Of a stretch of DNA of 64,000 bases, positions 12,732 through 45,212 are shown piece by piece. The number at the start of each line of letters is the position of its first letter. Positions within the stretch are counted from its first letter, which is position 1. Made by a program: the position numbers and the translations under genes. This stretch comes from an uncultured Desulfovibrionaceae bacterium (GTDB lineage Bacteria > Desulfobacterota > Desulfovibrionia > Desulfovibrionales > Desulfovibrionaceae), in assembly GCA_964368455.1 (NCBI GenBank), contig CAYJAZ010000009.1, positions 14,941 to 78,940 of the forward strand, given 5' to 3'. Below the pieces are notes generated by a model. That model was not told where the DNA came from. It did no database searches and was given only the letters and a program-made list of their open reading frames with translations.

Positions 12732-12770
12732 ATGTTCTTTTTTAAAATCTCTAACCACAAAGGATTGTAC

Positions 12771-16585: not shown

Positions 16586-16608
16586 CTTTTTCATAAAAAG
16601 GATCTTAT

Positions 16609-18621: not shown

Positions 18622-18639
18622 ATAAAACAAGGTTATTAT

Positions 18640-21769: not shown

Positions 21770-21789
21770 AAAAATCAAAGGAAGAAATT

Positions 21790-23547: not shown

Positions 23548-23576
23548 AAACTTCATTAGAAAATACAGGAAAAAAA

Positions 23577-24221
23577 ATGACTATTATCAAAGATACTCTA
23601 GACATTCAAAAACTTCACAACAACGCAGAAGAAATAGAGAATATTGCTAAAATAATCATAAAAAACAATGCAGTAAAACTTCATCTTGCTTGTGGAACCA
23701 ATTATTTTGAAAACTGGATAAACATTGATAATAATTCAGATAATAATATTTCAAAACTAGATTTAAACTATGACTTACGCAATCCCCTCCCTTTTAAAGA
23801 TAATTCTGTAGATTTTATTTTTAATGAACATTTTTTAGAACATCTCACAGCAGAAGAAGGCCATAGAGCATTAAAAGATTTTATGCGTGTTTTAAAACCA
23901 AATGGAATAATGCGTATAGCCATGCCTGACTTAATGAATATTGTTAACGCCTATCTCCACGATGATTGGGAAGATACAAAGATAAATTTTCTTGATAAAC
24001 ACGGACTTGGTTTTATAAAAACAAAGGCAGAACTTCTTAATATTAATTTCCGAGCATGGGGGCATAAATGGCTTTATGATTGGGAAGAACTTGAAAGAAG
24101 ACTTAACGAAGTTAATGCAAAAAACATCAAAAAATGTCTATGGCAGCAAAGCGAGCATGCTGTTTTAAAGAATCTAGAAACAAGAAATGAATCCACATTA
24201 ATAGCTGAAATTATAAAATAA
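23577..24221 (+). CDS. Class I SAM-dependent methyltransferase
   Basis: LHLACGTNYFENWINID...FNEHFLEHL...VLKPNGIMRIAMPD, a methyltransferase type-11-like pattern. Confidence 0.7.
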   Translation: MTIIKDTLDIQKLHNNAEEIENIAKIIIKNNAVKLHLACGTNYFENWINIDNNSDNNISKLDLNYDLRNPLPFKDNSVDFIFNEHFLEHLTAEEGHRALKDFMRVLKPNGIMRIAMPDLMNIVNAYLHDDWEDTKINFLDKHGLGFIKTKAELLNINFRAWGHKWLYDWEELERRLNEVNAKNIKKCLWQQSEHAVLKNLETRNESTLIAEIIK

Positions 24222-24242
24222 TTTAAGAAAAATAGAGTCCTT

Positions 24243-25988: not shown

Positions 25989-25997
25989 GGTAAGATA

Positions 25998-28900
25998 ATG
26001 ATTAAAGATATTTATATACATATTGCCACATTAGCAAGTGCATTTCCAATTCTTCATTTTTGCAATACAAATACTGCAATTCTCGAAAAACATGGCTATT
26101 ATTACCCTAAAATGCGAGATATCGCACCTTCTTACCCACAAGAACTTGACTTTTATGATGTATCAACACATGAATGGCTTGTTTCTATGCAAAATACATT
26201 TTCTGAACAAAATGCAAAAATAGCAGAAAAAAACGGTTTAGAACCATTTGTCTTAGCACATAGAAAAAAATGCTTAATAAATCTTGCTCAAAAAATTGAG
26301 GCCAAGCAAAACATCCATTCGCTTTGCCTTTTTGTCAATCCATTTTTGACAGATGTCGATCAAGTGTCCTTGCTCATAAAAGAGATTGAAGAAACATTTC
26401 CACACGCAAAGCTTCATATTTCTATACTCTCACTATTGGCAGATAAAGAAGTTCTAGGTAAATGGCTACATTGTTCTTTATATGAAAATTATCCTTTACG
26501 CTTGGAAGAGTTCATACTATACATTCAAAATAGAGGCTCTTGGTTATACACTCCCGATAAAATATATAAAAATCTTTCTGAAAATTATGAAGAAAAGATA
26601 GCACGAATAGTTATTCAAGATGAAAAAAATTTTTCAACAAGCTCTCTTTGTACATGGCTTGACAGCGTAGATTTATCCCATTTAAAATCTCTTGTCGATG
26701 ACAAGAGTGTGAGCTTTTTCATTTCAAAAGAGAAATTTTTATTTTTGAATTCTTTTTCAAAAAATAACTATCCTGAAAAATTTCCCCTTTCCTGGCTTAA
26801 AGAAACTGACTTTATCCAATGTGAAATATCCGAAAAAGAAAATAGTGAATATTTAACAAAAGAACAAAAAGAATTTATTAATAAGCAATACGAAGATATA
26901 AAAAATAATGTGCTTATGTCACCCATAGTAAAATATCCACTATTAAAAGATACCTTAGATAATCTTATAGATTTAGATTTAAATGATGCACTTTTCTTAG
27001 CCTCACAACTAAGTGCTGGCCTTCGAGCAAGATTAGAAGAAGAAATCAACACTTCTGCTTTGCCATTTAGCAATCTAAATATAAGAAATATACATTCTGC
27101 GCTCTTAGCAACACAAAAAAGAATTGAAAAAGATACTATGCATAATTTGGCTATAGATAGAGCAGAGACAAACATCAAGAATATTTACATTTTTTTCTCT
27201 CCCTTTCTTTCTCGCTCTATAATGACAGATTATGTGCTTACACATAAGAAAGAGATAGAAAAACATGGCATTTATTATCCAATATGCACTGATTTATTTG
27301 AACATTTTCCAAAAGAATTAGAATATCTCAATCACGAAGGCAATACTTGGCTTTATACGGATTCACAAAAATACAATAAATATCTATCAAATATTGCCGA
27401 TAAAATTTTGAATAAAAAGTTCACTTTTCCTGAGAACACTGACCTATTTACCACTTTAGTTAACTATCTTGCTAATAAAAAAAACCTACATTCGTTAGCT
27501 ATTTTTGCTCCTATTACTACGAATTATTCTTCCATAGTAGAGCTATATAAAATATTAAAAATACATTTTCCAAATGCACGTATACACGCAAAAGGCTGCG
27601 ATCTACCACAAGATAGAAAGGTTGAAAGTCTTTGGTGTGAAGCTATGATGAATGGAGAGTGTAAAATATCTTTAATGTACTACCTTTGGTATGTACATCA
27701 CAAAGGTACCTCTTTCAATTTAATAAAACCTATACAAGAAATTTTTTCAGATGGAAATACTTCATTTGATTATACAAAAATCTCGCACGAGAAAGAAGTC
27801 ATACCGCATTGGATTAAATGGCTAAAACTTGAAAATATATCCATAGAGGAAAATAAATTAAACACCCTTCCCTCCTCTCAAGTGCTTTCTTTCATAAAAG
27901 CTGTAAGCAATAATTTTTATCTTAATTCCATTCATTACGATTGGATATCACAAAAAGAATTTCTTTCATATAAGACAGATGAAGGACAAATAAACACCTA
28001 TTTACGTCCCTATTGGCGAAACTATATTCAAGAGCAATACAAGATAAATTTTGGAAAAGCTGATATACTTCAAGAAAACATTAAATATAAAGATTTAAGC
28101 GACGAATCACTTGGAATCAGTTTTGATGAAGCTATTACTCTTGCAAAACTACTTGAAAGCGATTTTCGTAAACTTATAGTAACACATCTTGATACAACAC
28201 TTTTAGCCTATCAAACACAGGCAGCAAGAAATGTATTTGCTGCCCTACTTTATGTTGAAGATAGAATCGATGAAGAAACACTCTCTACGTTCACTCAAAA
28301 TGCACAAGGCTGCACTCTTCCACCTCAAGCAATAAATGGAAAAATAGATCTTTCTGAAGCAAAAGTTGCAGTACTTACAATGACCTATAATCATAAAGAT
28401 TATATTGAACAATGTATAAAATCTGTACTTATGCAAGAAACTGATTTTCCTGTTACACATATTATTTCAGACGACGATTCAACTGACGGCACAAGAGAAA
28501 TCTTGCTAAAATATGCTGCAAAATATCCACATATTAAACTTATCTTCAACGATACAAATACTCCACATGAAGTTGCAGGAAGATTGTTTGATCAAATTTC
28601 AGCACCTTACGTTGCTCTTTGTGACGGCGATGATTATTTCAGCGACACAAAAAAATTGCAAAAACAAGTAGATTATCTTGAAGAAAATCCCAGAGCTTCT
28701 ATGTGTTTTCACTTTGTGCAGACTATATTTGAGGATAATCCAGATCTCACACAAATCTATCCTAAGGAAATAAAAAGAGGCATAAAAAAGCAATATTACT
28801 TACGTGAATTGCTTATTGAAAACTTTATTCAAACAAATTCAGTTATGTATAGATGGCGATTTCAAAATAAAGCATTGCCAGCTTGGTTTGCGTTTGGCAC

Positions 28901-29249
28901 TTGCCCATCAGATAGATATTGGCATCTCATTCAAGCTGAAGAGGGCTTTATAGGCTTCATACCTGAAATTATGTCTGTGTATAGAAGACATAGTGCTGGG
29001 CATTTTTTCCACACAACTAATAATATTTTAAAACACAGAGATTTGTATGGCTTACAAGAAATTATGCTTTTTGAATTTCTTAACATCCACTTTGAAGGCA
29101 AATTTCAGGAAGAACTAAAATGCATGGTCGACAGTGTTTATGCAGAACGTATATACAGTGCTTCAAAAAGGGAAGACATTACTCATATTCAAAGCATTTT
29201 AGCTTATTTTCCAAGTCTTCAAGAGTATTTAAAAAATAAATTTATGTAG
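25998..29249 (+). CDS. 1083-aa protein: two tandem copies of a ~390-aa unknown domain plus a C-terminal GT2 glycosyltransferase
   Basis: Internal duplication: IYIHI..LEKHGYYYP..NIHSLCLFVNP..FPHAKLHI matches IYIFF..IEKHGIYYP..NLHSLAIFAP..FPNARIHA. The GT2 part is VAVLTMTYNHKDYIEQC...ISDDDSTDGT...CDGDDYF. Confidence 0.6.
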   Translation: MIKDIYIHIATLASAFPILHFCNTNTAILEKHGYYYPKMRDIAPSYPQELDFYDVSTHEWLVSMQNTFSEQNAKIAEKNGLEPFVLAHRKKCLINLAQKIEAKQNIHSLCLFVNPFLTDVDQVSLLIKEIEETFPHAKLHISILSLLADKEVLGKWLHCSLYENYPLRLEEFILYIQNRGSWLYTPDKIYKNLSENYEEKIARIVIQDEKNFSTSSLCTWLDSVDLSHLKSLVDDKSVSFFISKEKFLFLNSFSKNNYPEKFPLSWLKETDFIQCEISEKENSEYLTKEQKEFINKQYEDIKNNVLMSPIVKYPLLKDTLDNLIDLDLNDALFLASQLSAGLRARLEEEINTSALPFSNLNIRNIHSALLATQKRIEKDTMHNLAIDRAETNIKNIYIFFSPFLSRSIMTDYVLTHKKEIEKHGIYYPICTDLFEHFPKELEYLNHEGNTWLYTDSQKYNKYLSNIADKILNKKFTFPENTDLFTTLVNYLANKKNLHSLAIFAPITTNYSSIVELYKILKIHFPNARIHAKGCDLPQDRKVESLWCEAMMNGECKISLMYYLWYVHHKGTSFNLIKPIQEIFSDGNTSFDYTKISHEKEVIPHWIKWLKLENISIEENKLNTLPSSQVLSFIKAVSNNFYLNSIHYDWISQKEFLSYKTDEGQINTYLRPYWRNYIQEQYKINFGKADILQENIKYKDLSDESLGISFDEAITLAKLLESDFRKLIVTHLDTTLLAYQTQAARNVFAALLYVEDRIDEETLSTFTQNAQGCTLPPQAINGKIDLSEAKVAVLTMTYNHKDYIEQCIKSVLMQETDFPVTHIISDDDSTDGTREILLKYAAKYPHIKLIFNDTNTPHEVAGRLFDQISAPYVALCDGDDYFSDTKKLQKQVDYLEENPRASMCFHFVQTIFEDNPDLTQIYPKEIKRGIKKQYYLRELLIENFIQTNSVMYRWRFQNKALPAWFAFGTCPSDRYWHLIQAEEGFIGFIPEIMSVYRRHSAGHFFHTTNNILKHRDLYGLQEIMLFEFLNIHFEGKFQEELKCMVDSVYAERIYSASKREDITHIQSILAYFPSLQEYLKNKFM

Positions 29250-29352: not shown

Positions 29353-30351
29353 ATGCTTAATAATAAAACAATACTCATCACAGGTGGCACAGGAAGTTTT
29401 GGAAAAAAATTTACTGAAATCGTTCTTGAAAAATATCCTGATGTAAAAAAAATTATCATTTTTTCTCGTGATGAATTTAAGCAATTTGAAATGCAAAACC
29501 AATCATTTTTTAAATTGCATGAAGAGAAACTAAGATATTTTATTGGCGATGTTCGTGACAAAGAAAGATTGCATAGAGCTTTTAATGAAGTGGATATTGT
29601 TATTCATGCAGCAGCACTAAAACAGGTTCCTGCTTGTGAATATAATCCTTTTGAAGCGGTAAAAACAAATGTTTTGGGTGCCCAAAATATTATTGATTCT
29701 GCAATTGATTGCGGCGTTGCGAAAGTAGTTGCACTTTCAACTGATAAGGCTTGTTCTCCAGTAAATCTTTATGGAGCAACAAAGCTTTGTTCTGATAAAC
29801 TTTTTATTGCCGGTAATGCCTATGTAGGTTTTGGTAGGCACACAAAATTCAGTGTTGTTCGTTATGGTAATGTTGCAGGCTCTCGCGGATCGGTTATTCC
29901 ATTTTTCCAAAAGCTTATAAAAGAAAAGGCAGAGTTTTTTCCTATAACCGATATGAACATGACACGTTTTTGGCTCAAACTTGAGCAAGCTGTTGATATG
30001 GTTTTAGAAGCTCTTGAAAAAATGCATGGCGGCGAATTATATGTAAAGAAAATCCCTTCTATGCGTTTGCCAGATTTAGCAAAAGCTATTTGCCCAACAA
30101 TGCCATTAAAAGAAGTGGGAATCCGTCCTGGTGAAAAAATCCATGAGCAAATGATAACCAAAGAAGATGCACACACAACAATAGACGCAGGTGAGTTTTA
30201 TATTATTTTACCACAAACAAAACTTGAGAGCATTGCTGGAAAATATAAAGATTCAAAGCCTTTAAAGGCTGATTTTGAATATCATTCTGGTAATAACGAT
30301 AGTTGGTTAACTATTGATGAAATGAAACAATTAATTTTAGATATTGCGTAA
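29353..30351 (+). CDS. pseB: UDP-N-acetylglucosamine 4,6-dehydratase (inverting), PseB
   Basis: 332 aa with ILITGGTGSFGK, FIGDVRD, IHAAALKQVP, STDKA..P.N.YGATK. Confidence 0.9.
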   Translation: MLNNKTILITGGTGSFGKKFTEIVLEKYPDVKKIIIFSRDEFKQFEMQNQSFFKLHEEKLRYFIGDVRDKERLHRAFNEVDIVIHAAALKQVPACEYNPFEAVKTNVLGAQNIIDSAIDCGVAKVVALSTDKACSPVNLYGATKLCSDKLFIAGNAYVGFGRHTKFSVVRYGNVAGSRGSVIPFFQKLIKEKAEFFPITDMNMTRFWLKLEQAVDMVLEALEKMHGGELYVKKIPSMRLPDLAKAICPTMPLKEVGIRPGEKIHEQMITKEDAHTTIDAGEFYIILPQTKLESIAGKYKDSKPLKADFEYHSGNNDSWLTIDEMKQLILDIA

Positions 30352-30376
30352 TAATTAACTAATATAAGAGAAAATT

Positions 30377-31273
30377 ATGGCACATTTTTTTAATATACCC
30401 TTTTTAAAAAGTAAATACTTACTGAGTCATAATATCTCAAAACTTATGCGTGAAAGTATTAATTCTGAGATAAACACCAAAGATATTATAGAAACTGCCT
30501 ACGATATACAAGCCGGAAGTTATATTGAAATGCATGTTACAAATCCTCAATCCAATAAAGAATATTTCGAAGAAAAAGCTTTGACTATTTTAAAATTCTT
30601 CCCACAAGCAACAAGTCTTTTAGATTGCGGATGTGGTGAACTAACCGGAACAAGCCTTAACTATCACAAATTTCTCTCCTCTCAGATAAACTCTTTTTAT
30701 TCTTTTGATATAAGCTGGAGTAGAATTTATAAAGGAAAAAAATTCTTTCAAGAAAAAACGGGCACAAGCCCACATTGCTTTATTGCCGATATGGAACATA
30801 TTCCTTTGCCTGATAATTCTATAGATCTTGTCACAAGCTCACATGCCTTAGAACCTAATCACGGAAGCGAAGAAGTGCTTATAAAAGAGCTCTTACGTGT
30901 CTCTAGGTTAGGTTTAGCTTTATTTGAACCCTCATGGGAGCTTGGCGACGAAGAACAAAAAAAACGCATGGATGAACATGGTTATATCCGCAACCTGCCT
31001 TATATCATAGAAAAACTTGGCTATCGACTCATAAAAAATGAACTTTTAGAAAATCAAATTACTCAATATAATAAAACGGCTATGTATATAGTTAAAAAAA
31101 ATACGAATGAAGCCACCAAGGCTAGCTTTGTTGATCCTATTTCTAAAACTCCTCTTGTTTCAACAGAGGAAAATTTTCTTTTCTCTAAAACAACAGGTAG
31201 AGTTTATCCTATAATTAAAAACATTCCTGTTTTACGTAAAGAATGTTCTGTGCTTGCTACACATTATGAGTAG
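30377..31273 (+). CDS. Class I SAM methyltransferase with a C-terminal Trm112-like tail
   Basis: LLDCGCGELTG is motif I. The C-terminal DPISKTPL....FLFSKTTGRVYPIIKNIPVL resembles the Trm112/YcaR zinc-ribbon-like fold. Confidence 0.65.
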   Translation: MAHFFNIPFLKSKYLLSHNISKLMRESINSEINTKDIIETAYDIQAGSYIEMHVTNPQSNKEYFEEKALTILKFFPQATSLLDCGCGELTGTSLNYHKFLSSQINSFYSFDISWSRIYKGKKFFQEKTGTSPHCFIADMEHIPLPDNSIDLVTSSHALEPNHGSEEVLIKELLRVSRLGLALFEPSWELGDEEQKKRMDEHGYIRNLPYIIEKLGYRLIKNELLENQITQYNKTAMYIVKKNTNEATKASFVDPISKTPLVSTEENFLFSKTTGRVYPIIKNIPVLRKECSVLATHYE

Positions 31274-31280
31274 AAATTTT

Positions 31281-32387
31281 ATGAAAAAATATAATTATGG
31301 TAAGCAAAATCTTAATGCATCAGACTATAAAGCTGTCTTGAAAACATTAAAATCGTCTTTCTTGACTTGTGGCCCAAAAGTAAAAGAATTTGAAAAAGCC
31401 CTTTGTTCTTATACTGGAGCAAAATATTGCCTTGCTGTGTCTTCTGCTACAGCAGGATTACATATTGCTATGCTTGCGGCAGGCATAAAAGAGAATGACG
31501 AAGTTATCACAAGCCCAAATACCTTTCTTGCTTCTGCAAATTGTGCTTTGTATGTTGGAGCCACAGTAAAATTTGCTGATATAGAAGAAAAAACTGCGAA
31601 TATTGATGCCGCTGAAATAGCAAAAGCTATCACTCCTAAGACAAAAGCAATTATTCCTGTGCATTTTGCAGGTCAATCTTGTGACATGGAAAAAATTCAT
31701 GCACTCACACAAGATAAAGATATTGTAATCATTGAAGATGCTGCCCATGCTATTGGCTCTGATTATAAAGATACGAAAGTTGGCTCTTGCAAATATTCTG
31801 ATATGACGGTTTTTTCCTTTCATCCTGTAAAAACAATGACAACAGGCGAAGGTGGAGCAATCACTACAAATAGCAAAGAATTGTATGAGAAATTACTTTC
31901 TTATCGTTCTCATGGAATGCATAAAGAGGGGAAAATGGCTCATACATGGGAATACGAAATGCGTGAACTTGGCTATAATTACAGAATGACTGATATCCAA
32001 GCCGCACTTGGTTGCTCCCAGATAAAAAGGCTTGACACATTCAAAGCCCGTAGACGTGAAATAGTTGATTTTTATAATAAAAAATTAGGCTTACCGCATT
32101 TAGAAGAAAAAGAATATTCAAATGCATGTTTTCACCTTTATCCTGTCTTAGTTGACAATAGAAAAGAATTCTATAACAATGCAAAGAAAATAGGTTTAAA
32201 CTTGCAAGTTCACTATATTCCAGTGCATATACAGCCCTATTATCAAAATTTAGGCTTTAAAAAAGGGGACTTTCCAAAAGCTGAAGCCTATTATGAAAAA
32301 TGTATTTCTTTGCCACTGTATTATGGATTAAAGAAAAAAGATTTGAAAGAAATTGTGAAGAAAGTAAACAAAATTATTAATATTTGA
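31281..32387 (+). CDS. pseC: UDP-4-amino-4,6-dideoxy-N-acetyl-beta-L-altrosamine transaminase, PseC-like (DegT family)
   Basis: YGKQNL start, ITSPNTFLASAN, DAAHAIGS, FSFHPVKTMTTGEGG (PLP lysine). The position between pseB and pseF/pseI supports the call. The ATG at 31281 follows the upstream stop. Confidence 0.85.
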   Translation: MKKYNYGKQNLNASDYKAVLKTLKSSFLTCGPKVKEFEKALCSYTGAKYCLAVSSATAGLHIAMLAAGIKENDEVITSPNTFLASANCALYVGATVKFADIEEKTANIDAAEIAKAITPKTKAIIPVHFAGQSCDMEKIHALTQDKDIVIIEDAAHAIGSDYKDTKVGSCKYSDMTVFSFHPVKTMTTGEGGAITTNSKELYEKLLSYRSHGMHKEGKMAHTWEYEMRELGYNYRMTDIQAALGCSQIKRLDTFKARRREIVDFYNKKLGLPHLEEKEYSNACFHLYPVLVDNRKEFYNNAKKIGLNLQVHYIPVHIQPYYQNLGFKKGDFPKAEAYYEKCISLPLYYGLKKKDLKEIVKKVNKIINI

Positions 32388-32444
32388 TTAGAAAATATTA
32401 TGAATGAACAAGAATTATTTTAGAAAGGCGAATAAGGAGTAAGT

Positions 32445-33611
32445 ATGAAATATTGTGTCAGATGTGTGCAACCGGATACCCGCCCAGATATATACTACAA
32501 TGAAGATGGCGTCTGTGGTGCATGCCTTTGGGAAGATGAAAAACAACAAATCAATTGGAATGAACGCCTCAATGAACTTCAAGAAATTTCAGCGTGGGCT
32601 AAAAATCAAAGAGCTGCATACGATTGTGTAATTGGTGTCTCTGGCGGAAAAGACTCTACAAGGCAAGCTATTGTCATGCGTGATGAAATGGGTTTACGCC
32701 CTCTGCTTGTAAGTTCTGAACCATATAAAAACACTGCTATCGGCTTTGCTAATATTGAAAATTTAAAAAGTTTAGGTTTCGATGTAATTTCAATGAAAGC
32801 AAATGCAAAAGTAGTACGTAAACTTCTTAGAAAAGATTTTTTTTCTATCCTAAACCCTAATAGAGTATTAGAATATTGTTTACATTCTTCAGCATATATT
32901 ATAGCTGATAAATTCGATATTCCACTAGTGGTGAATGGTGAAAATCCTGGTCAAACTTTGGGTTTGGCAAGTTTAAAAGGTTGTAATGGAGACGCAACAG
33001 CGGCTTTTAAACAAAATACAGTCAAGGAAGATTATAAAAAAATCTATGTTGATGATGAAATCAAACTAGAAGATCTTTATATGTTCTCAGCCAATATGGA
33101 AAGAGTCGCTCAAAAAGGTATACGAGGAGTATGGCTCAGTAATCATTTAAAAGATTGGGGAGAACAAAATAACGCAAAGTTTTCCATAAAGCATGGACTA
33201 ACTATACGTGATAAAGATTCAGATCCATACCAAACAGGGCGTTACAGACGTTTTGCGTGTCTTGATCACAATTTCATCTCTGTGAATAATTTATTGAAAT
33301 ACATTAAGTTTGGTTTTAGTGGGGCTACAGATGAATCATGCTATGATGTGCGTCATAAAAATCTTACACGTGAAGAAGCAATATTTTTAGTGAAAGAGCT
33401 CGATAAAGCTTACAGCCAAGAAGAATTGTCAAACTTTTGCAAATTAATAGATATATCAGAAAATGAATTTTGGGAACACGCGAATACTTTTAGAGGTGTT
33501 ATGTGGGAAAAGATAGGAAATAATTGGCAATTGAAAAACCCTATCTGGAAGCAAGAAGCAATTACGGGCGAATACACTGTAAAGGCTATAATGCAACAAC
33601 TTGGAATATAA
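32445..33611 (+). CDS. N-acetyl sugar amidotransferase (PseA/WbuX-type PP-loop enzyme)
   Basis: N-terminal Zn-ribbon MKYCVRCVQPDTRP...GVCGAC and PP-loop GVSGGKDST. Confidence 0.8.
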   Translation: MKYCVRCVQPDTRPDIYYNEDGVCGACLWEDEKQQINWNERLNELQEISAWAKNQRAAYDCVIGVSGGKDSTRQAIVMRDEMGLRPLLVSSEPYKNTAIGFANIENLKSLGFDVISMKANAKVVRKLLRKDFFSILNPNRVLEYCLHSSAYIIADKFDIPLVVNGENPGQTLGLASLKGCNGDATAAFKQNTVKEDYKKIYVDDEIKLEDLYMFSANMERVAQKGIRGVWLSNHLKDWGEQNNAKFSIKHGLTIRDKDSDPYQTGRYRRFACLDHNFISVNNLLKYIKFGFSGATDESCYDVRHKNLTREEAIFLVKELDKAYSQEELSNFCKLIDISENEFWEHANTFRGVMWEKIGNNWQLKNPIWKQEAITGEYTVKAIMQQLGI

Positions 33612-33618
33612 TACTATT

Positions 33619-34353
33619 ATGGCGAGTTCAAACGATGCTAGTTGTGATTGCCTTTGTATAGTTATGGCAAGAGGTGGTTCTAAGCGTGTTCCACACAAGA
33701 ATAAACGTATGTTTAATGGCAGACCTATGCTTGCGTGGCCTATTGAGATTGCACTTGAAAGCGAATTGTTTTCTGATGTTGTAATATCTACTGATGATAA
33801 TCATATTGCAGAACTAGCGGTACAATACGGTGCTCAATTACCTTTCTTGCGTCCTATAGAATTGGCAAGCGATTTTACAACAACTGCAGAAGTTTTAAGA
33901 TACACTTTATCCACTTTAAAAGAAAAACACAGCAAAAGATATAAATATTGTTGCTGCTTATATGGAACTTCGGCAATGATTAGAAAAGAATATTTGCAAA
34001 ATGCCTTTGATAAACTAGCCTCAACTGATACTGAATGTGTATATGCTGTTGCCGAATATTCACACCCTATAGAAAGGGCTTTACAGTTTAATCAAGATAA
34101 TAGTATTTCCTATCGCTTCTCAGAGCATGTGTCTATGCGTACTCAAGATATTCAACCATCCTATTACGATTTGGGTTTATTCTATTTATTTTCTGTGGAA
34201 GCTTTTCAAAAAACTTCCTCAAATAGCTTTTTAGCTTTACAAAAAACTGCTATAATTCTTCCACGTTTTGCGGCAATAGATATAGATAATGAAGAAGATT
34301 TATTTCTTGCTGAAAATATTATGCAAACAACTAACCATTATAAAAAAAGATGA
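33619..34353 (+). CDS. pseF: CMP-nonulosonic acid (pseudaminic acid) cytidylyltransferase, PseF-like
   Basis: IVMARGGSKRVPHKNKRMFNGRPMLAWPIE, the acylneuraminate cytidylyltransferase signature. I chose the ATG at 33619 over the TTG at 33601. Confidence 0.75.
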   Translation: MASSNDASCDCLCIVMARGGSKRVPHKNKRMFNGRPMLAWPIEIALESELFSDVVISTDDNHIAELAVQYGAQLPFLRPIELASDFTTTAEVLRYTLSTLKEKHSKRYKYCCCLYGTSAMIRKEYLQNAFDKLASTDTECVYAVAEYSHPIERALQFNQDNSISYRFSEHVSMRTQDIQPSYYDLGLFYLFSVEAFQKTSSNSFLALQKTAIILPRFAAIDIDNEEDLFLAENIMQTTNHYKKR

Positions 34354-35447
34354 TAAAGTCTACTATAGAAAAATTTAATGTGTTGTCAGGGCGTTCTTTT
34401 TCCGGCCCCACTCAGGTTTATGTTGAAACTTTTTCTGCATGTACCAATAAATGCAAAATGTGCCCACGTACAAAGATTAGAAATTCATATGGATATATGA
34501 AAGATGATTTATTCTTTCACATTATTAGTAAACTTCAAGAAATAAATTTTTCTGGTCAATTACATTTATATGGTCAATCTGAACCATTTTTGGACAGAAA
34601 AATTATAGAACGTATACACTATGCTCATACACAATTACCGCAAGCTAAGATTATCTTGATTACAAACTTTACACATTTATCGGATAATTTGATGGACGAA
34701 ATTCTTGATTCGCCAATCCATAATTTATCTTGCTCTTTATATGCCTTAGATAGGGAAAATTACAAGAAAATATGTGGGCAAGATAATTTTGAAAAAACTT
34801 TTATAAATCAGATAAAATTTTTAAAAAAATATGCTAAAAAAATACCATTTTCTTTTGCAAATTACATTATAGAAACCCCAGAAATCATTGCTGATATTAA
34901 ATTTATTAATCATTATATCTTCGATATTGCCCCATTGGGTTTTGCTCAATCAGGTAAATTATGCCAACTTTTTAATGTACAAAACAATGCATTAGAGGCA
35001 TCTAGAAAATATTATTCTGATTGCATCTATACAAATTTAAAAATTACACCCAATGGCTGTATGGCAACTTGTCCTTGTGACTCAGGAAATCAACTTGAAA
35101 TAGGTAATATAAAATCCTCTTTAGGTACTGTAACAGAAATTTATAACAATGAAAAAGCCAGAAAACTTAGAAAAAAAATGATCTATAACAATGAAACAGA
35201 TGCCTATTGCCAAAGATGTGAATTTCGTCGTTCACAACTTTTTACGGACTACTTTTTAGGGCATGAAATTGATACCAATGATAAATATAAACATAAGCAA
35301 AGAACTTTACGTAATTCTCACTCAGAAATAAGGCATAAAGCTATTTTGTTTGATCAATTATTTAAGGATAATGCAGAAAGCGAATGGTTAGATGTTTTAG
35401 AGAAACTCAAGCGTGATTTTTATGCAAAAAAACAAAAGAACACATAG
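34350..35447 (+). CDS. Radical SAM / SPASM-type protein
   Basis: CX3CX2C near the N-terminus (FSACTNKCKMC) and a C-terminal Cys cluster (CMATCPC...IGNI...CQRCEF). ATGA overlap with the pseF stop. Confidence 0.7.
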   Translation: MIKSTIEKFNVLSGRSFSGPTQVYVETFSACTNKCKMCPRTKIRNSYGYMKDDLFFHIISKLQEINFSGQLHLYGQSEPFLDRKIIERIHYAHTQLPQAKIILITNFTHLSDNLMDEILDSPIHNLSCSLYALDRENYKKICGQDNFEKTFINQIKFLKKYAKKIPFSFANYIIETPEIIADIKFINHYIFDIAPLGFAQSGKLCQLFNVQNNALEASRKYYSDCIYTNLKITPNGCMATCPCDSGNQLEIGNIKSSLGTVTEIYNNEKARKLRKKMIYNNETDAYCQRCEFRRSQLFTDYFLGHEIDTNDKYKHKQRTLRNSHSEIRHKAILFDQLFKDNAESEWLDVLEKLKRDFYAKKQKNT

Positions 35448-36198
35448 ACTCGGATTAAAACTCTGGTCAATAAACACAGACTACTATTATGATGAAGCAA
35501 TAAAACTTTATCAAGATGATGTATTTGACTATATTGAACTTTATGTAGTGCCAAACTCATTACACACACTAGATAAGTGGGCTAAGTCAAACATTCCTTT
35601 TTCTTTACATGCTCCTCATTTTATGCACGAAGTAAACTTGGCGAATAAAGATAAGTTTGAATATAATAAAAATATTTTTCTTGAAGTAGAAGAATTTAGA
35701 AAAAGCCTTAAGGCAAATTATACAGTCATCCATGCTGGGGCAAGCGGAAATATTGAAGAAACAATTTCACAGCTTATTCTGATATCTCCTCAAAACGCTT
35801 ATATCGAAAATAAGCCCTATAAAGCTCCTTTTAATTTGAAGAATGTATGCAGAGGGGCGACATATGAAGAAATTACTCTTATAAAGGAAAAAACAAAACT
35901 CGGATTTTGTTTGGATATAGGACATTGCATATGCTCAGCTAATTCTTTGAGAATAGATCCTTACGAATATCTTGCAAAGCTTCAAAGCTTGTCGCCACAA
36001 TGCTATCATATAAGCGGGAATTATATTGACAGTGAAATAGATAAACATTTACACTTACATGAGGGGAATTTTGATTATAAAAGAATATTTTCAATTATTG
36101 ATACTACTAAGGATATTGCAGTAGAAACAGATAAAGATTCAAAAATTTCACTTGACGACTTTAAAATGGATGTACAATGGTTAAGAAAAATGCTCTAA
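35422..36198 (+). CDS. Xylose-isomerase-like TIM-barrel protein (sugar-phosphate isomerase/epimerase family)
   Basis: About 258 aa with YIELYV, HAPH, VIHAG, YIENKP and HLHEG strings, typical of AP-endonuclease-2/TIM-barrel proteins. The start (ATG 35422 or GTG 35413) is uncertain. Confidence 0.5.
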   Translation: MQKNKRTHRLGLKLWSINTDYYYDEAIKLYQDDVFDYIELYVVPNSLHTLDKWAKSNIPFSLHAPHFMHEVNLANKDKFEYNKNIFLEVEEFRKSLKANYTVIHAGASGNIEETISQLILISPQNAYIENKPYKAPFNLKNVCRGATYEEITLIKEKTKLGFCLDIGHCICSANSLRIDPYEYLAKLQSLSPQCYHISGNYIDSEIDKHLHLHEGNFDYKRIFSIIDTTKDIAVETDKDSKISLDDFKMDVQWLRKML

Positions 36199-37397
36199 TA
36201 CTTGGTGGAAGTCCCGCTAACAATGGTGTGTATGATATCCTTAAAAAACTTGGATGCTTTGTTTTTGTTGCTGATTATCGTCCTAATATCAAAGCAAATT
36301 ATGATAAGCATATTCTTTTTGACGCCTGTAGCCCTGAATTAATTTCTATTTTACGCACTAAAAATATAAATATTGATTTCGTCTATACTTCTATGGACGG
36401 TGCTGGCTTAGCTCAACATGCAATATGTAAAGAATATAAACTATTCCATGCAAGTGAAGAAGCAATTTCAAATGCTCATCATAAAAACCTCATGCATGAA
36501 GCTTGGTTAAAAGCAGGCTTATTAAATAGAGAAAGCATAGCCCTTAGCTCATGCGATTATGCTATCATCGCAAACATGAACAAGAATAAAAAAATAATAA
36601 TCAAGCCCGCCAATGCTTGTGCTTCCAGAGGACTTAGCGTTTTAGAAACAAAATCACCCAAAAAATACATACAAAAAGCTTTTGAAAAAGCAATGGCCTA
36701 TACTACAAATTCATTAGTAAATATTGAAGAATTCTTAGAAGGAACAGAATTTAGTGTGGAAATGCTAGGAGATAACTATGGCAATGTAAGCGTTTTTTCA
36801 ATAGGACGCCGCTATTATATGCAAAATTCAAATGTCATTACTGCATGTAAAATTCATTATAATTCAAAAGACTTAGACATTAAGACACGTGAAAAAATAG
36901 CACAAAAATCTATTGAATGCTATAAGGCACTGAATCTAAAAAACACTTTAGGGCATTTTGAAGTCATGCTCAAAAAAGACGGCACTTTATCTCCTATAGA
37001 ATTGGGGGCACGCTCATCAGGATTTATAGGTAGCCATTGTGCAGAATTAACTACGAACAAATCCCTTATAAAAGAATATTATAAAGTTTTACATGGAAAA
37101 AAAATCGAAACATCTTTGTTGCCGCAAAATAACATTTCATCACTCTACTTTATATACGATTTACCGCCTAATATTCCATTGAAAAAAGAAATATCACTTG
37201 TTAATTTTTTAGATGAAAAAATTATTTGCCATGCATATAATAGAGAATATATGACTTTGAATAAGAAATTTAAAGTATTAGAACAGGATACAGACAGATA
37301 TGGTTATGAAATTGTATCCGGTTCAAAAGAAATTTTAACCATGGAGCACATTCAAAAGGCTGAAGAAAATTTTCTAAAGGAATGTTTTTATGAATAA
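36177..37397 (+). CDS. ATP-grasp domain ligase
   Basis: IIIKPANACASRGLSVLE, EEFLEGTEFSVE, IELGARSSG. Confidence 0.65.
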   Translation: MVKKNALILGGSPANNGVYDILKKLGCFVFVADYRPNIKANYDKHILFDACSPELISILRTKNINIDFVYTSMDGAGLAQHAICKEYKLFHASEEAISNAHHKNLMHEAWLKAGLLNRESIALSSCDYAIIANMNKNKKIIIKPANACASRGLSVLETKSPKKYIQKAFEKAMAYTTNSLVNIEEFLEGTEFSVEMLGDNYGNVSVFSIGRRYYMQNSNVITACKIHYNSKDLDIKTREKIAQKSIECYKALNLKNTLGHFEVMLKKDGTLSPIELGARSSGFIGSHCAELTTNKSLIKEYYKVLHGKKIETSLLPQNNISSLYFIYDLPPNIPLKKEISLVNFLDEKIICHAYNREYMTLNKKFKVLEQDTDRYGYEIVSGSKEILTMEHIQKAEENFLKECFYE

Positions 37398-38058
37398 AAT
37401 GGACTCTAAAGAAAAAGATAACACATTGCGAAGATATGAAAAACGGTATAGTGAATTTGGCTATTCACCTCAATCTCTGGGCTGGCTAAAAGGAAAACAA
37501 AATATTAGATTTATAAATCTATTGTCTGAATACAATGCAAACAACAAACATATTCTTGATATTGGCTGCGGTTTTGGCGATTTAAACCTCATACTAGAAA
37601 AAAAATTTGCCTCTTACAAATATACTGGTTGTGATTTATATGAAAAATTTATACTTGAAGGTAAAAAAAGATACTTATCTGCAAATTTTATATGCGGAGA
37701 TTTTTTAGAACTCCCATTAGAAAGTATATATGATTGGGCCATTGCTTCTGGCCCATTCAATCATATTTTTGAAAAAAACAATAATTATGATTTCATTGAA
37801 AGCGTCATGAAAAAGGCATATAGTGTCACTAAGGATGGATTTTCTTTCGACTTTATTAACGATAAAGTTGATTATAAAGACGAAGGTATTTTCTATGCAA
37901 ATCCTGAAAAAATCCTTTCTATTGCATATTCTTTATCGAGAAACATTATATTAAAGAATAACTACATGCCATTTGAATTTTCTATTTTTGTGTTCAAAGA
38001 TGATAGTTTCAACGAAAATATTATATACAACAAATGGTTAACAGATGAAAATTTTTGA
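37390..38058 (+). CDS. Class I SAM-dependent methyltransferase
   Basis: Motif I ILDIGCGFGDL. 8-nt overlap with the upstream gene. Confidence 0.7.
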   Translation: MNKMDSKEKDNTLRRYEKRYSEFGYSPQSLGWLKGKQNIRFINLLSEYNANNKHILDIGCGFGDLNLILEKKFASYKYTGCDLYEKFILEGKKRYLSANFICGDFLELPLESIYDWAIASGPFNHIFEKNNNYDFIESVMKKAYSVTKDGFSFDFINDKVDYKDEGIFYANPEKILSIAYSLSRNIILKNNYMPFEFSIFVFKDDSFNENIIYNKWLTDENF

Positions 38059-38782
38059 TAGTTTAACTCATCCAACTTTAGATGGTACATGGTTAAATCC
38101 TCGTTTTGGAGAATATGCCAATATTGATTATTTGCTAGATCAAATGAAAGTGAATAATATTTACAAAGCATTTGCTGTAGGTTTAAAAAATGTTGGTGCA
38201 TATGATGAAGAAAAATTCTTTAAACTTATAAAAACTCATACAAATCTCATTCCTATTGCTTTTTGCGATAATCCTCGTCAGTTAGAAGCTATAAAATTAT
38301 TGGGTTACAAAGGAATAAAAATACATCCACGTATTGCAAATTTTGTAGGTGATGAAGATATTATTTTTCAAATAATTAATGAGGCTAATAGGCAAAATTT
38401 AATTGTACTCTATTGTGGTTTTTTAGAATTAAATCCTAGTTTTACAAAAAAAATAAAAGATGCAAAACTTATTTACTTACACTGTGGAGGTAAAAATTTT
38501 ACTCATACCTATAATCAATTAATCCACAAGGAAAATATACTTCTTGATTTATCCTATACTATACATAATTATCAAAAGCTCATTGAACAAATAAAGAGTG
38601 CTGTTTTGAAATTTCCACATAGATTCTGTATCGGCTCTGATCACCCTGAAGTTTCTTACCAAGACTTACGCATAAATTTTGAAAAAATTACTGATGGATT
38701 AGATGAAGAACAAAAAAAATTTATAGCGTATAAAAACTTAGAAAAATTTTGTTCAGCTATAACAAATCCTCAAAGGAAATAA
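38045..38782 (+). CDS. Amidohydrolase-2-type metal-dependent hydrolase (TIM barrel)
   Basis: MKIFDSLTHP..., IKIHPR, LHCGG, GSDHP pattern. Confidence 0.5.
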   Translation: MKIFDSLTHPTLDGTWLNPRFGEYANIDYLLDQMKVNNIYKAFAVGLKNVGAYDEEKFFKLIKTHTNLIPIAFCDNPRQLEAIKLLGYKGIKIHPRIANFVGDEDIIFQIINEANRQNLIVLYCGFLELNPSFTKKIKDAKLIYLHCGGKNFTHTYNQLIHKENILLDLSYTIHNYQKLIEQIKSAVLKFPHRFCIGSDHPEVSYQDLRINFEKITDGLDEEQKKFIAYKNLEKFCSAITNPQRK

Positions 38783-38784
38783 TA

Positions 38785-39789
38785 ATGCCTAAAACCTATA
38801 TCATAGCGGAAATATCAGCCAATCACAATGGTTCGATAGTTCGAGCAGAAAATATCATAAAAGCTGCTGCACAAGCAGGGGCTGATGCTATTAAGTTACA
38901 AACATATACAGCAGATACCATAACAATTCCTTGTGAAAATGATTTTTTTCAAATCAAAGGCACTTTATGGAATGGACAGACATTACATAAACTTTATCAA
39001 GAAGCATATACCCCTTGGGAATGGACGCCTCGTTTAATGGCCTATGCAAAAGATTTGGGCTTAGATTGTTTTTCCTCACCCTTTGACTTTTCTGCTGTTG
39101 ACTTTTTAGAGCAATGCAGCATGGAAAAATATAAAATTGCTTCACCTGAACTTATAGATATTCCACTTATCAAGAAAATTGCACAAACAAAGAAAGCTGT
39201 AATAATGTCAACTGGCATGGGAACATTAGCTGAAATAGACGAAGCTGTTCGCACTTTACGTGAAAATGGAAATACTGATTTGACTTTATTAAAATGCACC
39301 ACAGCTTACCCTGCACCCGTTGAAGAAGCAAATTTGCTCACAATTCCACATTTAGCACAAGCTTTCAATTGTAAAGTTGGGCTTTCTGATCATACTATGG
39401 GTTCAGCCGTTGCAGTAGGTGCTATTGCGCTTGGTGCTTGTGTTGTTGAAAAACACTTCACACTTGCTCGTGCTGACGGAGGCCCTGACGGAGCTTTTAG
39501 CATGGAGCCACACGAATTTAAACAAATGGTTCAAGATATACGCATTGTTGAAAAAGCTTTGGGCAAAGTGAATTATGAACGCACAGAAAAAGAACAAGGC
39601 AGTGTTTGTTTTAGACGTTCACTCTTTATTGTAAAAGACATAAAAAAAGGCGAAAAATTCACTAGTGAAAATGTACGTTCTATCCGCCCGGGACATGGTT
39701 TGCACACAAGATATTTAGATGTAATTTTAGGCAAAACTGCTAAAAGCGATTTCATAAAGGGAACACCGCTTTCATGGGATATGGTATAG
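38785..39789 (+). CDS. pseI: Pseudaminic acid synthase, PseI
   Basis: IIAEISANHNGS...AGADAIKLQTYT...IKGTLWNG..L..LY.EA.TPWEW...GLSDHT...EKHF, plus a C-terminal SAF domain (SLFIVKDIKKGEKF). This matches my recollection of Campylobacter PseI. Confidence 0.88.
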   Translation: MPKTYIIAEISANHNGSIVRAENIIKAAAQAGADAIKLQTYTADTITIPCENDFFQIKGTLWNGQTLHKLYQEAYTPWEWTPRLMAYAKDLGLDCFSSPFDFSAVDFLEQCSMEKYKIASPELIDIPLIKKIAQTKKAVIMSTGMGTLAEIDEAVRTLRENGNTDLTLLKCTTAYPAPVEEANLLTIPHLAQAFNCKVGLSDHTMGSAVAVGAIALGACVVEKHFTLARADGGPDGAFSMEPHEFKQMVQDIRIVEKALGKVNYERTEKEQGSVCFRRSLFIVKDIKKGEKFTSENVRSIRPGHGLHTRYLDVILGKTAKSDFIKGTPLSWDMV

Positions 39790-39800
39790 TAAAAAACAAA

Positions 39801-40718
39801 TCAAAGAAGCTTTGTTCTGCCCGCTAGTATCCAATAAATAGTTTCTTCAAGTGTGTATTTAGCTTTCCAGTTAAACTTTGTGTTAAACTTATTACAATCA
39901 AGCTTTATCTTTGTATTTATGTCTTTTTCTTGTAAGTTTATTGTAATTTCTTTGCTATATTCTTGTGCAAGAATTTTTCTTATACTTTGTGCAATGTGCA
40001 TAATATCATAGTGTTCGTCAGAGCCTAAATTATACACATTTTCAATATTTTCATGCCTTGAAGAAAATGAAGAAAGTGAATCAAGCAAAAAAATTATCGC
40101 ATTTATTGCATCTCTAGTGTCTAGATACGAAAAAATCTGTGCTCCGCCAACAATAGTAATTTCATTTTTTTCTAGTGCAGCTTCTATCATTTTATTTACT
40201 ATTCTTTCTTTTAAAAAAGGCGAAAGCAAGCTTGCCAAGCGTATATGTGTTATTTTTGTTTCTGAATTTTCACAAATTTCATTACCAAGCTCTTCGCAAG
40301 CATATTTTGCAATGCCGTAAAAGTCAAAAGGATTGGGAATATCACTTTCTACAGAAGGAATTTCTCTCAGATTTCCATAGATACTTTGTGAGGAAACATG
40401 TACAATATTTTTAACCCTTGCTTCCTTGGCTTTTTTAAAAATTTCTTTTGAAAAATCAATACTTTTTACTAAATCATTTCCATTTTGCGTTCTTGCAAAT
40501 GCAAGATGTAAAACACAATCAAGATCTTTGAAATCGATTTTATTCTTATAGAAATCTTCTTCATTAAAAAAATTAAGAGTTTCATAGCTTTCAAACTCTT
40601 TTATTAAATTTTCTTTTTGTGTGCTAAGAGCTTTAATAGTATATTTTTTAGGTAGAGCTTTCAGCAAAAGACGACCAAGAGTTCCGCCTGCCCCTGTGAT
40701 TAAAATATTTTTGTTCAT
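39801..40718 (-). CDS. NAD-dependent epimerase/dehydratase (extended SDR)
   Basis: ILITGAGGTLG Rossmann motif and a YGIAK catalytic YxxxK. Confidence 0.8.
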   Translation of the reverse strand: MNKNILITGAGGTLGRLLLKALPKKYTIKALSTQKENLIKEFESYETLNFFNEEDFYKNKIDFKDLDCVLHLAFARTQNGNDLVKSIDFSKEIFKKAKEARVKNIVHVSSQSIYGNLREIPSVESDIPNPFDFYGIAKYACEELGNEICENSETKITHIRLASLLSPFLKERIVNKMIEAALEKNEITIVGGAQIFSYLDTRDAINAIIFLLDSLSSFSSRHENIENVYNLGSDEHYDIMHIAQSIRKILAQEYSKEITINLQEKDINTKIKLDCNKFNTKFNWKAKYTLEETIYWILAGRTKLL

Positions 40719-41803
40719 ATAAACTTTTCTCCACCATGCTCTAGCAAAAACTTCAACATAACATTTTTTTCAACATCAAAATCATGATAGTCCACAGGCA
40801 CATAAGAGGTATTTCTGTTGAAATACAATTTTTCATTTTCAAAATTATGCATAAAATGAAAACCGTATAAATCTATATTCTCAAATGAACCAAGCACATT
40901 ATAAAGATGAAGAATAAAATCACTGCCACTTGTAAGAGAAATATTTATTCCTAGTTCTTTCCAAGCATATTGGGCAGTTTTATCACCATATTTTTGACAT
41001 TTTTTATCAAGAACTGAGTAAAGATTTTCAATTCCACTTTCATCTCTGAAAAAATAGCAATCAAATCGCCATAAAGTGAATAAAAGATCAGGTTTTCTAT
41101 ATCTGAGAAAATTTTTACAACCTACTGTATTTACCCAAATATCTGTTCTTTTTCCATAATCTTTTTCAAAGCCTTTATCTGTGCCTTGGCTAAACCTTAC
41201 AACTATATCATGGCTATCGATTTCTTTGCCTCTGCCCTTACCCTTTTCGTAAGGGCCATTTGCAACAACAGCAATACTCTTTCCTCGCACAAGCTTTTCA
41301 AACTCTTGATTTTGCTCTGCTTCCATTAATTTTTCATGTATTAATGCAGATTTTTCTATCAACTCATTTGTATAATTTTGCTTATGGAAATAGTGTGCAA
41401 CATAAGGATAATCTTCAACATTTTCTAATTGATGATAATAATAATATCTTCTTGAAAGAAATTCTATCTTTTCATGCAAGTTGTTTTCTAAAAGAATTGT
41501 AAGATACAAGAGCCACAATCTATTATTTTCTGAACGCCAGCAATACATTGATACTTCAAGTCTTTCAAAGGAATGTAATAAATCTTTGCTAAAACCTTGA
41601 AATTTATATTCAGCCAAAAGCATTTCATAATTATGTGCACGCATTTTAGGCACTATATATTGTGCCATTTTATCGAAACATTCTTTAGGTTTCGCTTTGT
41701 ATTCGTTCATGAATCTTTCTAAATTATCAACTTTTTCACGCAAGATTTTATTTTCTTCTTGTAGTTGTATCAATATTTTTTTGCTTTTGCTCTTTTTTTT
41801 CAT
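40715..41803 (-). CDS. Sialyltransferase-like (GT42/GT29-like) nonulosonic-acid transferase with an N-terminal coiled-coil extension
   Basis: SIAVVANGPYE....GKEIDSHDIVVRFS parallels the CstII IIAGNGPSLKEIDY...FDVFRCN motif. LTSGSDFILHLYNVLGSFENIDLYGFHF parallels ITSGVYM..A.ALGYKEIYLSGIDF. Confidence 0.55.
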   Translation of the reverse strand: MKKKSKSKKILIQLQEENKILREKVDNLERFMNEYKAKPKECFDKMAQYIVPKMRAHNYEMLLAEYKFQGFSKDLLHSFERLEVSMYCWRSENNRLWLLYLTILLENNLHEKIEFLSRRYYYYHQLENVEDYPYVAHYFHKQNYTNELIEKSALIHEKLMEAEQNQEFEKLVRGKSIAVVANGPYEKGKGRGKEIDSHDIVVRFSQGTDKGFEKDYGKRTDIWVNTVGCKNFLRYRKPDLLFTLWRFDCYFFRDESGIENLYSVLDKKCQKYGDKTAQYAWKELGINISLTSGSDFILHLYNVLGSFENIDLYGFHFMHNFENEKLYFNRNTSYVPVDYHDFDVEKNVMLKFLLEHGGEKFI

Positions 41804-41813
41804 ATCTTCTCCA

Positions 41814-43049: not shown

Positions 43050-43076
43050 AAAAAAGCTCCAATATTAAAAATCTAC

Positions 43077-45161: not shown

Positions 45162-45212
45162 ATATCAAAATTCCTTATTGTCTTGTGGTATTTCTCTGTG
45201 CCAAACAGTTTT

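Follow-up and report, generated by a model that had tools for sequence, protein, structure and literature searches.

A pseudaminic acid operon of an uncultured Desulfovibrionaceae bacterium, with a putative TIM-barrel substitute for PseG and a candidate ATP-grasp cassette in place of PseH

Pseudaminic acids (Pse) decorate flagella, capsules and S-layers, and they affect motility, virulence and phage recognition. A stretch of 64,000 nucleotides from an uncultured Desulfovibrionaceae bacterium (contig CAYJAZ010000009.1, positions 14,941 to 78,940; hereafter the window) carries an operon for such a sugar at window positions 29353-39789. This operon raises a simple question: how is the sugar acylated and released from its nucleotide when the two enzymes known for these steps are not found beside the others? 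In Campylobacter jejuni and Helicobacter pylori, the canonical route to the cytidine monophosphate (CMP)-activated sugar runs in the order PseB-PseC-PseH-PseG-PseI-PseF (PMC7591256, PMC13317340). Like this pathway, the window encodes PseB, PseC, PseI and PseF, the set by which a uridine diphosphate (UDP)-bound 2,4-diamino-2,4,6-trideoxy-altrose is built, released, condensed with phosphoenolpyruvate (PEP) and activated with CMP. Unlike it, the window has neither the GT-B hydrolase PseG nor the GNAT acetyltransferase PseH; their slots are held by an endonuclease IV (EndoIV)-like TIM barrel and by a cassette around an ATP-grasp ligase. The gene contexts compared here suggest that the TIM barrel is most likely a non-homologous substitute for PseG and that the cassette is a likely one for PseH. 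Taken as a whole, this variant route to CMP-pseudaminic acid is considered reasonably probable.

The four Pse orthologs and the search for PseG and PseH

The region 29353-39789 consists of 11 open reading frames (ORFs) on the plus strand, and the gaps between them, from -35 to +57 nt, fit a single operon. Families were assigned with the NCBIfam equivalog cut-offs and the Pfam thresholds, and all findings reported here derive from sequence and gene context. By these scores, four of the products are orthologs of the canonical enzymes. PseB (29353..30351, +), the inverting UDP-N-acetylglucosamine (UDP-GlcNAc) 4,6-dehydratase, matches TIGR03589 with 506.8 bits (cut-off 407.75), and PseC (31254..32387, +), the aminotransferase forming the UDP-linked 4-amino-4,6-dideoxy derivative of N-acetylaltrosamine (AltNAc), matches TIGR03588 with 478.9 bits (cut-off 423.5). 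PseF (33601..34353, +), the CMP-pseudaminic acid synthetase, reaches 244.9 bits with TIGR03584 (cut-off 205.7), and the pseudaminic acid synthase PseI (38749..39789, +; likely start at ATG 38785) reaches 498.6 bits with TIGR03586 (cut-off 340.25). The PseI sequences closest to that of the window come from a PseG-type cluster of a Deferribacteraceae (locus L015, 81%) and from a TIM-type cluster of a Desulfovibrionaceae (L016, 77%).

Seven further genes lie among these four. A preliminary description of the same DNA had already given the gene list and its order, both of which were correct, and had called the operon interrupted by seven extra enzymes. The count stands; the word does not, since the TIM barrel appears to be a core pathway gene of a distinct and recurrent cluster type.

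The absence of PseG and PseH was examined at several levels of sensitivity. The window ORFs of 100 aa or more were all scanned against NCBIfam, and part of them against Pfam, and among these ORFs there was no match to TIGR03590 (PseG), TIGR03585 (PseH), GNAT, GT28 or a left-handed beta-helix/hexapeptide acyltransferase. Queries from annotated plasmids (a Klebsiella PseG-PseH fusion, and PseG and PseH of Bacillus thuringiensis), run with phmmer against all six frames of the 64 kb, gave a best E of 0.14, the best for PseH being 0.79. Profile hidden Markov models (HMMs) were then built from 32 PseG and 21 PseH sequences: the former had no match in the window at E<=1, and the best match of the latter had E 0.89. 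The earlier statement that the window holds no GNAT-like or GT28-like (PseG) sequence is thus borne out by all three kinds of search. The possibility that one of the inserted genes is itself a diverged PseG or PseH was also considered and rejected: the profile HMMs found none, and every one of these genes can be assigned with confidence to another fold or family.

The TIM-barrel protein in the slot of PseG

The TIM-barrel protein (35413..36198, +; 261 aa, start possibly at ATG 35422) matches PF01261 with 34.6 bits (cut-off 31.1). Its context was compared in two sets of 80 loci, one centred on PseI and taken from GTDB species representatives, the other centred on TIM and taken from metagenomes; their ORFs were labelled by phmmer. 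The PseI-centred loci comprise 66 with PseG and no TIM protein, two with a TIM protein and no PseG (the Desulfovibrionaceae locus L016 and L053), 12 with neither and none with both. PseG is absent from every TIM-centred locus. When the PseG profile HMM was used, PseG was found in 67 of the 80 PseI-centred loci and in 0 of 93 TIM loci, and the exclusivity of the two proteins has a pooled Fisher p of 2e-20. Pse core genes are present in 30 of the 34 TIM loci that extend at least 5 kb on either side, including all 24 in which the TIM protein scores at least 200 bits, and in the loci with such flanks TIM and PseI are a median 571 bp apart. Among plasmids, the TIM query had no match: 165 plasmid records carry PseI and 0 carry TIM.

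The gene also stands where PseG would be expected. The shortest arrangement is PseB-PseC-PseF-TIM-PseI (L110, L117), and PseB-PseC-PseF-TIM-GNAT-PseI is found in L120, L138, L145, L149 and L152. The slot that follows TIM in TIM-type clusters is filled by a PseH-like GNAT, by an ATP-grasp protein of one of two families, or by a formyltransferase accompanied by a PIG-L deacetylase.

Gene fusions point to the same step. As many as 45 of the 150 best representatives of the TIM family are at least 380 aa long, and 41 of these are fused to a GNAT domain, 39 in the order TIM-GNAT and two in the order GNAT-TIM; in one representative the partner is a sugar N-formyltransferase domain. Ten fusion proteins were scanned, eight of them GNAT fusions; PseH (TIGR03585) matched in all eight and was the strongest GNAT model in seven. 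Examples of the natural fusions, to GNAT or in one case to the formyltransferase domain, are P0388, P0389, P0393, P0397, P0403, P0412, P0529, P0533 and P0437, as well as L113:4975-6192 and L169:485-1744, the last two lying inside PseG-less Pse clusters. An equivalent is known on the PseG side: the 510-aa 'pseG' of a Klebsiella plasmid (NZ_CP055164, L013:7415-8947) is a PseG-PseH fusion, and the TIM family forms its PseH-like GNAT fusion at the same cluster position. The hydrolase half of the Klebsiella protein is a GT28-like Rossmann GT-B domain, whereas that of the TIM fusions is a non-homologous TIM barrel with an EndoIV-type metal site. This mirrored architecture ties TIM to the step next to the N-acylation of the nucleotide sugar. 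Fusions of TIM to a DUF559 domain also exist (P0224, P0386).

In neighbor-joining trees, PseB from TIM-type clusters falls mostly in one clade (27 of 38), and so does PseC (29 of 42). Both window proteins are inside these clades, and the nearest relatives of the window PseB all come from TIM-type clusters. PseI from TIM-type clusters does not form one clade. The enzymes handling the UDP-linked intermediates therefore seem to co-evolve with TIM.

A more conservative explanation would be that the pathway is canonical, with pseG and pseH elsewhere in the genome, and that the role of the seven additional genes is confined to tailoring Pse or its CMP derivative. The evidence from this organism spans just the 64-kb window out of a contig of at least 109.5 kb, a scattered arrangement of Pse genes is known from Caulobacter (PMC7591256), and the PseG HMM detects no PseG within 10 kb in 13 of the 80 loci centred on PseI, so that unlinked pseG may occur. 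Several of the loci with neither PseG nor TIM are short contigs; those of a Thermotogaceae (L025), a Spirochaetales (L040) and a Lachnospiraceae (L042) have full 10-kb flanks, and in these either pseG is unlinked or there is a third solution. Against such an explanation stands the distribution itself: if the presence of PseG were independent of TIM, the chance of finding it in 0 of the 30 full-flank loci with TIM and PseI would be 2e-23. Moreover, a late tailoring enzyme would hardly be expected to occur fused to a PseH-like GNAT and to take the PseG slot, as TIM does. The canonical explanation is consequently regarded as unlikely.

The TIM barrel is most likely the non-homologous substitute, and its family and fold are informative on the chemistry. 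The family comprises 913 clusters at 90% identity, with 53-69% identity to the window protein among the top 120; an exhaustive HMM search yields, at 50% identity, 980 clusters with E up to 1e-3, 644 up to 1e-10 and 297 up to 1e-30. The enzyme is spread over hundreds of uncultured microbes. No NCBIfam model covers it: the best nfo model gives 20.9 bits (cut-off 333) and CbiR 15.4 bits (cut-off 105), and one homolog in the JGI data is annotated merely as 'sugar phosphate isomerase/epimerase'. CbiR, annotated as a phosphodiesterase, is the sole model of a small-molecule enzyme with a weak NCBIfam match. By these profile scores, the window protein is a member of the AP_endonuc_2 superfamily and not an ortholog of Nfo. 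When the family profile is searched against the sequences of solved structures, endonuclease IV ranks first with E 1e-6. The identity of the window protein to the solved EndoIV structures is ~15-19%.

The AlphaFold2 (AF2) model of the protein has a predicted local distance difference test score (pLDDT) of 91.5, and its top Foldseek folds are MbnB, in first place, endonuclease IV (TM ~0.7) and MJ1311. The E. coli Nfo reference sequence was checked against 1qtw before it was aligned with the family. The nine metal ligands of Nfo (H69, H109, E145, D179, H182, H216, D229, H231 and E261) correspond to H69, H107, E132, D168, H171, H199, D210, H212 and E238 of the TIM protein, and all nine are invariant in 24 members of the family. 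Nfo and the window protein thus have in common the PF01261 domain, the TIM-barrel fold and the nine metal-ligand positions. Endonuclease IV and the cobamide-remodelling enzyme CbiR hydrolyse phosphodiesters next to a sugar. The window protein differs from both in scoring far below their equivalog cut-offs and in its context, which is sugar biosynthesis and not DNA repair.

The same structural evidence leaves room for a different function, in which TIM would be a metal-dependent sugar epimerase or isomerase, or a multinuclear iron oxidase like MbnB, making another stereoisomer or an oxidised sugar while a different enzyme removes the nucleotide. MbnB and MJ1311, which resembles D-tagatose-3-epimerase, are among the top folds, there is a weak PF05114 match, the name of the PF01261 family refers to xylose-isomerase-like enzymes, and some TIM relatives lie outside Pse clusters. 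The PF05114 match is, however, below threshold (16.8 bits against 25; E 0.004), and no neighbouring gene matches an MbnC-like family or a precursor of a ribosomally synthesised and post-translationally modified peptide, the partners sought for the oxidase family of MbnB, TglH and ChrH. Sugar isomerases and epimerases of the PF01261-type fold use about four metal ligands, whereas all nine of EndoIV are kept in TIM, and the profile-sequence searches rank endonuclease IV first. Furthermore, the sugar must still be freed for PseI, and TIM is the sole non-canonical gene common to the PseG-less clusters, including the minimal PseB-PseC-PseF-TIM-PseI ones. An epimerase or oxidase is therefore rated as rather unlikely.

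The exclusivity with PseG, the PseG slot, the PseH-like fusions and the EndoIV-type site together indicate that the TIM barrel most likely substitutes for PseG without being homologous to it. Removal of the nucleotide by a non-orthologous hydrolase, for which the preliminary description had named the TIM-barrel protein as one candidate, is thus strongly supported by exclusivity across the 160 sampled loci, by gene position, by the GNAT fusions and by the predicted nine-ligand site. A second type of sugar may be served by the same family: in L011 and L012, two divergent sets of NeuB, TIM and a cytidylyltransferase adjoin, at 3600-7100 (-) and 7500-13700 (+), the second with a TIM protein of 211 bits and a NeuB of 173 bits, and from these pairs it appears that TIM may also act in a second nonulosonate pathway.

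The ATP-grasp cassette and the N-acylation step

Between the TIM gene and pseI lie three genes that travel together. The first (36177..37397, +) encodes an ATP-grasp ligase (ATP-grasp_4, PF13535, 63.1 bits against 27), proposed here as the N-acyl or aminoacyl ligase replacing PseH. Among PDB entries it is closest to 4dim, to the L-amino-acid ligases BL00235 and BacD, and to Ddl. The second (37390..38058, +) encodes an S-adenosylmethionine (SAM)-dependent methyltransferase, MT2 (Methyltransf_25, E 3.6e-11), whose relatives are always found in the ATP-grasp/amidohydrolase cassette, adjoining one or both of these genes. The third (38045..38782, +) encodes a protein of 245 aa with the Amidohydro_2 fold, similar to LigI and ACMSD. 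Its own sequence has no match in Pfam, PF04909 included, in NCBIfam or in the PDB; the assignment comes from its 237 homologs, many of which match PF04909 (Amidohydro_2), from a profile and from its AF2 model (pLDDT 95.3), for which the top folds are 2-pyrone-4,6-dicarboxylate hydrolases (LigI), BB4693 and ACMSD. The residues D5, H9, H94, H146, D168 and D199 are invariant in the family.

Amidohydrolase homologs always have an ATP-grasp and a methyltransferase gene next to them, and usually an RraA-like gene as well. Together these genes occur in the Pse/TIM clusters L001, L003, L101, L105 and L175, and also, with a DegT-type aminotransferase, in clusters without NeuB and without TIM, namely a flagellar glycosylation island of Cohnella (L006) and the Wzx/GT56 polysaccharide clusters L176 and L177. 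Since the cassette always comes with a DegT-type aminotransferase, even where NeuB and TIM are absent, it tracks the aminotransferase, and TIM tracks NeuB. In each of L006, L176 and L177, a five-gene unit of ATP-grasp, Amidohydro_2, methyltransferase, RraA-like and DegT aminotransferase genes lies at ~6800-11500. This unit probably makes an undescribed N-acyl 4-amino-4,6-dideoxyhexose.

The joint occurrence with DegT fits an ATP-dependent N-acylation of the 4-amino group. No PIG-L deacetylase is present in the operon, and no acetyltransferase was detected among the window ORFs scanned. Without the deacetylase, N5 would keep the acetyl group derived from GlcNAc, which would be available to a PseA-like amidotransferase; with neither enzyme in the window, the 4-amine installed by PseC is the obvious free nucleophile. 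The ATP-grasp cassette is therefore a likely substitute for PseH as judged from gene content. That the ligase acylates the 4-amino intermediate had been suggested before, and the proposal gains support both from the association of cassette and DegT and from the alternation of GNAT, ATP-grasp and formyltransferase genes after TIM. As for the acyl donor, the LigI-like fold and the RraA-like partner in relatives (a family of LigK-type aldolases and decarboxylases) hint at a small oxo- or hydroxy-dicarboxylic acid, which is speculation.

The RraA-like gene is found between the amidohydrolase gene and pseI in the closest relative, L175 (L175:5186-5824), and in most other copies; it is absent from the window and from L101. 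A degraded copy at window position 38782-38785 was looked for, and the best E of 0.12 is noise.

The Amidohydro_2-like protein (38045-38782) had itself been proposed to remove the nucleotide. It has a TIM fold of the metal-hydrolase type and its gene is directly upstream of pseI. On the contrary, its association with the cassette and DegT speaks against this role: it is absent from most PseG-less clusters and always comes with the ATP-grasp and methyltransferase genes, including in the NeuB-less clusters of Cohnella (L006), L176 and L177, which need no nucleotide removal. Its closest folds, moreover, are lactonases and decarboxylases acting on carboxylic acids (LigI, ACMSD) and not phosphoesterases. 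With distribution and fold both against it, the amidohydrolase was rejected as a PseG substitute, a role that is very improbable.

Proposed pathway, related systems and surrounding genes

In the proposed pathway, PseB and PseC would convert UDP-GlcNAc into UDP-4-amino-4,6-dideoxy-beta-L-AltNAc. The ATP-grasp ligase would then activate a carboxylic or amino acid as the acyl phosphate and amidate the new 4-amino group with it, replacing the acetyl-CoA-dependent PseH, and MT2, the LigI-like amidohydrolase and perhaps a radical SAM enzyme would make or tailor the acyl group. At the PseG step, a three-metal centre in TIM is predicted to cleave the UDP-sugar by hydrolysis at its sugar-1-phosphate ester, freeing the 6-deoxy-altrose derivative. 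PseG cleaves the C1-O bond; in TIM, the attack would likely be at phosphorus and not at C1. PseI would condense the free sugar with PEP, PseF would make the CMP-sugar, and an amidotransferase similar to PseA and WbuX would turn the remaining 5-acetamido group into acetamidino. Such a route should yield a Pse5Am(or 5Ac)7-acyl derivative whose N7 substituent is not acetyl. Use of another nucleotide carrier, on the model of the GDP-linked route to legionaminic acid, was considered and set aside, the operon having no extra nucleotidyltransferase. A broader claim, namely that this is a second widespread route to Pse in which an EndoIV-like, trinuclear-metal TIM barrel replaces PseG by attack at phosphorus and an ATP-grasp cassette can replace PseH to give an undescribed N7-acyl group, hangs evenly in the balance.

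Several observations weigh against this pathway. PseG and PseH could both be encoded elsewhere in the genome, beyond the window. The TIM fold and its ligand set, as modelled, are common to the multinuclear iron oxidases of the MbnB type, and the wider superfamily includes sugar isomerases and epimerases. TIM relatives with ~40% identity are located far from any Pse gene (L142-L144:9989-10801 and L147:9998-10759) and may have a different substrate. Several TIM clusters have no acyltransferase (L110, L117), so the TIM substrate could be the free amine or the N-acyl form. The cassette of the window may be incomplete, as the RraA-like gene is missing here. Finally, amidation of a carboxylate is another conceivable role for the ATP-grasp ligase, as is a step at the stage of the CMP-sugar or the glycan. 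The outlying TIM relatives are found in two contexts, one with LptF/G and a NAGPA-like phosphodiester glycosidase as neighbours and one with a HAD hydrolase.

Non-acetyl acyl groups at N7 and N5 are a known theme, as is acetamidino synthesis of the PseA/PtmG type, for which the window carries a WbuX/PseA homolog. The N-acyl variants of Pse and legionaminic acid (Leg) include formyl, hydroxybutyryl, glyceroyl and N-methyl-glutamyl groups (in part PMC13576459, PMC5378307). In the window, unlike in these variants, the acyl group would come from an ATP-grasp ligase with a cassette of LigI-like and methyltransferase (and, in relatives, RraA-like) genes. The flagellin glycan of Shewanella oneidensis has a Pse-like sugar with one N-acetyl group and an extra moiety; its authors report no clear PseH or PseG orthologs and cite the literature on ATP-grasp amidoligases (PMC3765264). 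The gene set of that organism, sfmABCDE, differs from that of the window. In the openly searchable literature (subscription-only articles being outside the scope), neither the involvement of a TIM-barrel or EndoIV-like enzyme in making Pse nor an ATP-grasp N-acylation of precursors of Pse or other nonulosonic acids is described, and no curated model exists for the former. With the role proposed for it, TIM would probably extend the endonuclease IV superfamily by a new activity, to judge from sequence comparisons.

Pathway prediction, PseG-directed inhibitors and chemoenzymatic work assume the six-enzyme PseBCHGIF route. If the proposed pathway is true, genome surveys that require PseG would miss organisms of the TIM type, whose genomes are now scored as pathway-incomplete. 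The proposed substitute accounts for at least 297 clusters at 50% identity and is found in two of 80 sampled Pse-positive species genomes. It would also mean that a large branch of the endonuclease IV superfamily, as yet without a name, acts on a small molecule, and it would provide a clean case of non-orthologous displacement. The cassette, in turn, suggests that 4-amino sugars carry an N-acyl decoration not yet described, common to nonulosonate and ordinary polysaccharide clusters.

Three further genes belong to the operon. The acetamidino step is assigned to the N-acetyl sugar amidotransferase of the WbuX/PseA type (acetamido to acetamidino) at 32445..33611 (+), which has 305.8 bits with TIGR03573 (cut-off 203.2) and matches PDB 8wex, an N-acetyl sugar amidotransferase, with E 5e-31. 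The gene at 34350..35447 (+) encodes a protein with Radical_SAM and SPASM domains, a candidate sugar-tailoring enzyme. Its sole sequence match in the PDB is BtrN, an aminosugar dehydrogenase (E 2.8e-8). Relatives of this protein are strong in L001 (361 bits) and L175 (475 bits), with weak radical SAM matches of 27-37 bits in L003 and L097-L099. A class-I SAM-dependent methyltransferase, MT1 (30377..31273, +; Methyltransf_11, E 2.7e-8), is encoded between pseB and pseC, and its homologs recur between these two genes in L097-L099, L113, L129 and L150. The Trm112-like tail ascribed to MT1 is visible only as a weak C-terminal match, with PF03966 below threshold (E 0.089).

Upstream of the operon, the same glycosylation island extends over 15854-29249 (+). 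It encodes a WbqC-like protein (15854-16585, +), a methyltransferase, a second ATP-grasp protein similar to ATPgrasp_Ter and PylC (17308-18621, +), a radical SAM protein with its SPASM/twitch domain ahead of the core (18640-19698, +), and two B12-binding radical SAM enzymes (21760-23547 and 24243-25988, +). A 720-aa glycosyltransferase family 2 (GT2) protein and a 1083-aa protein with a C-terminal GT2 domain are encoded in the same part of the island, on the same strand. Downstream, a convergent operon at 39801-46307 (-) includes an NAD-dependent epimerase and a 694-aa GT2 protein. It also carries a GT29 sialyltransferase-family match (40715-41803, -; PF00777, 50.7 bits), a candidate Pse transferase, as well as a third ATP-grasp protein (41814-43049, -) and a second DegT aminotransferase (45213-46307, -). 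The GC content of the window is 30-40%, and the best named matches of its UvrB, to Halodesulfovibrio, Mailhella and Desulfovibrionaceae, have 70-72% identity; the DNA is therefore probably that of an uncultured, low-GC relative of the Desulfovibrionaceae. A scan for promoters and terminators gave counts no higher than the shuffled expectation. Farther away, a CcrM-like adenine DNA methyltransferase is encoded directly after uvrB (9997-11136), and an 824-aa autotransporter (46779-49253) flanks the glycosylation island.

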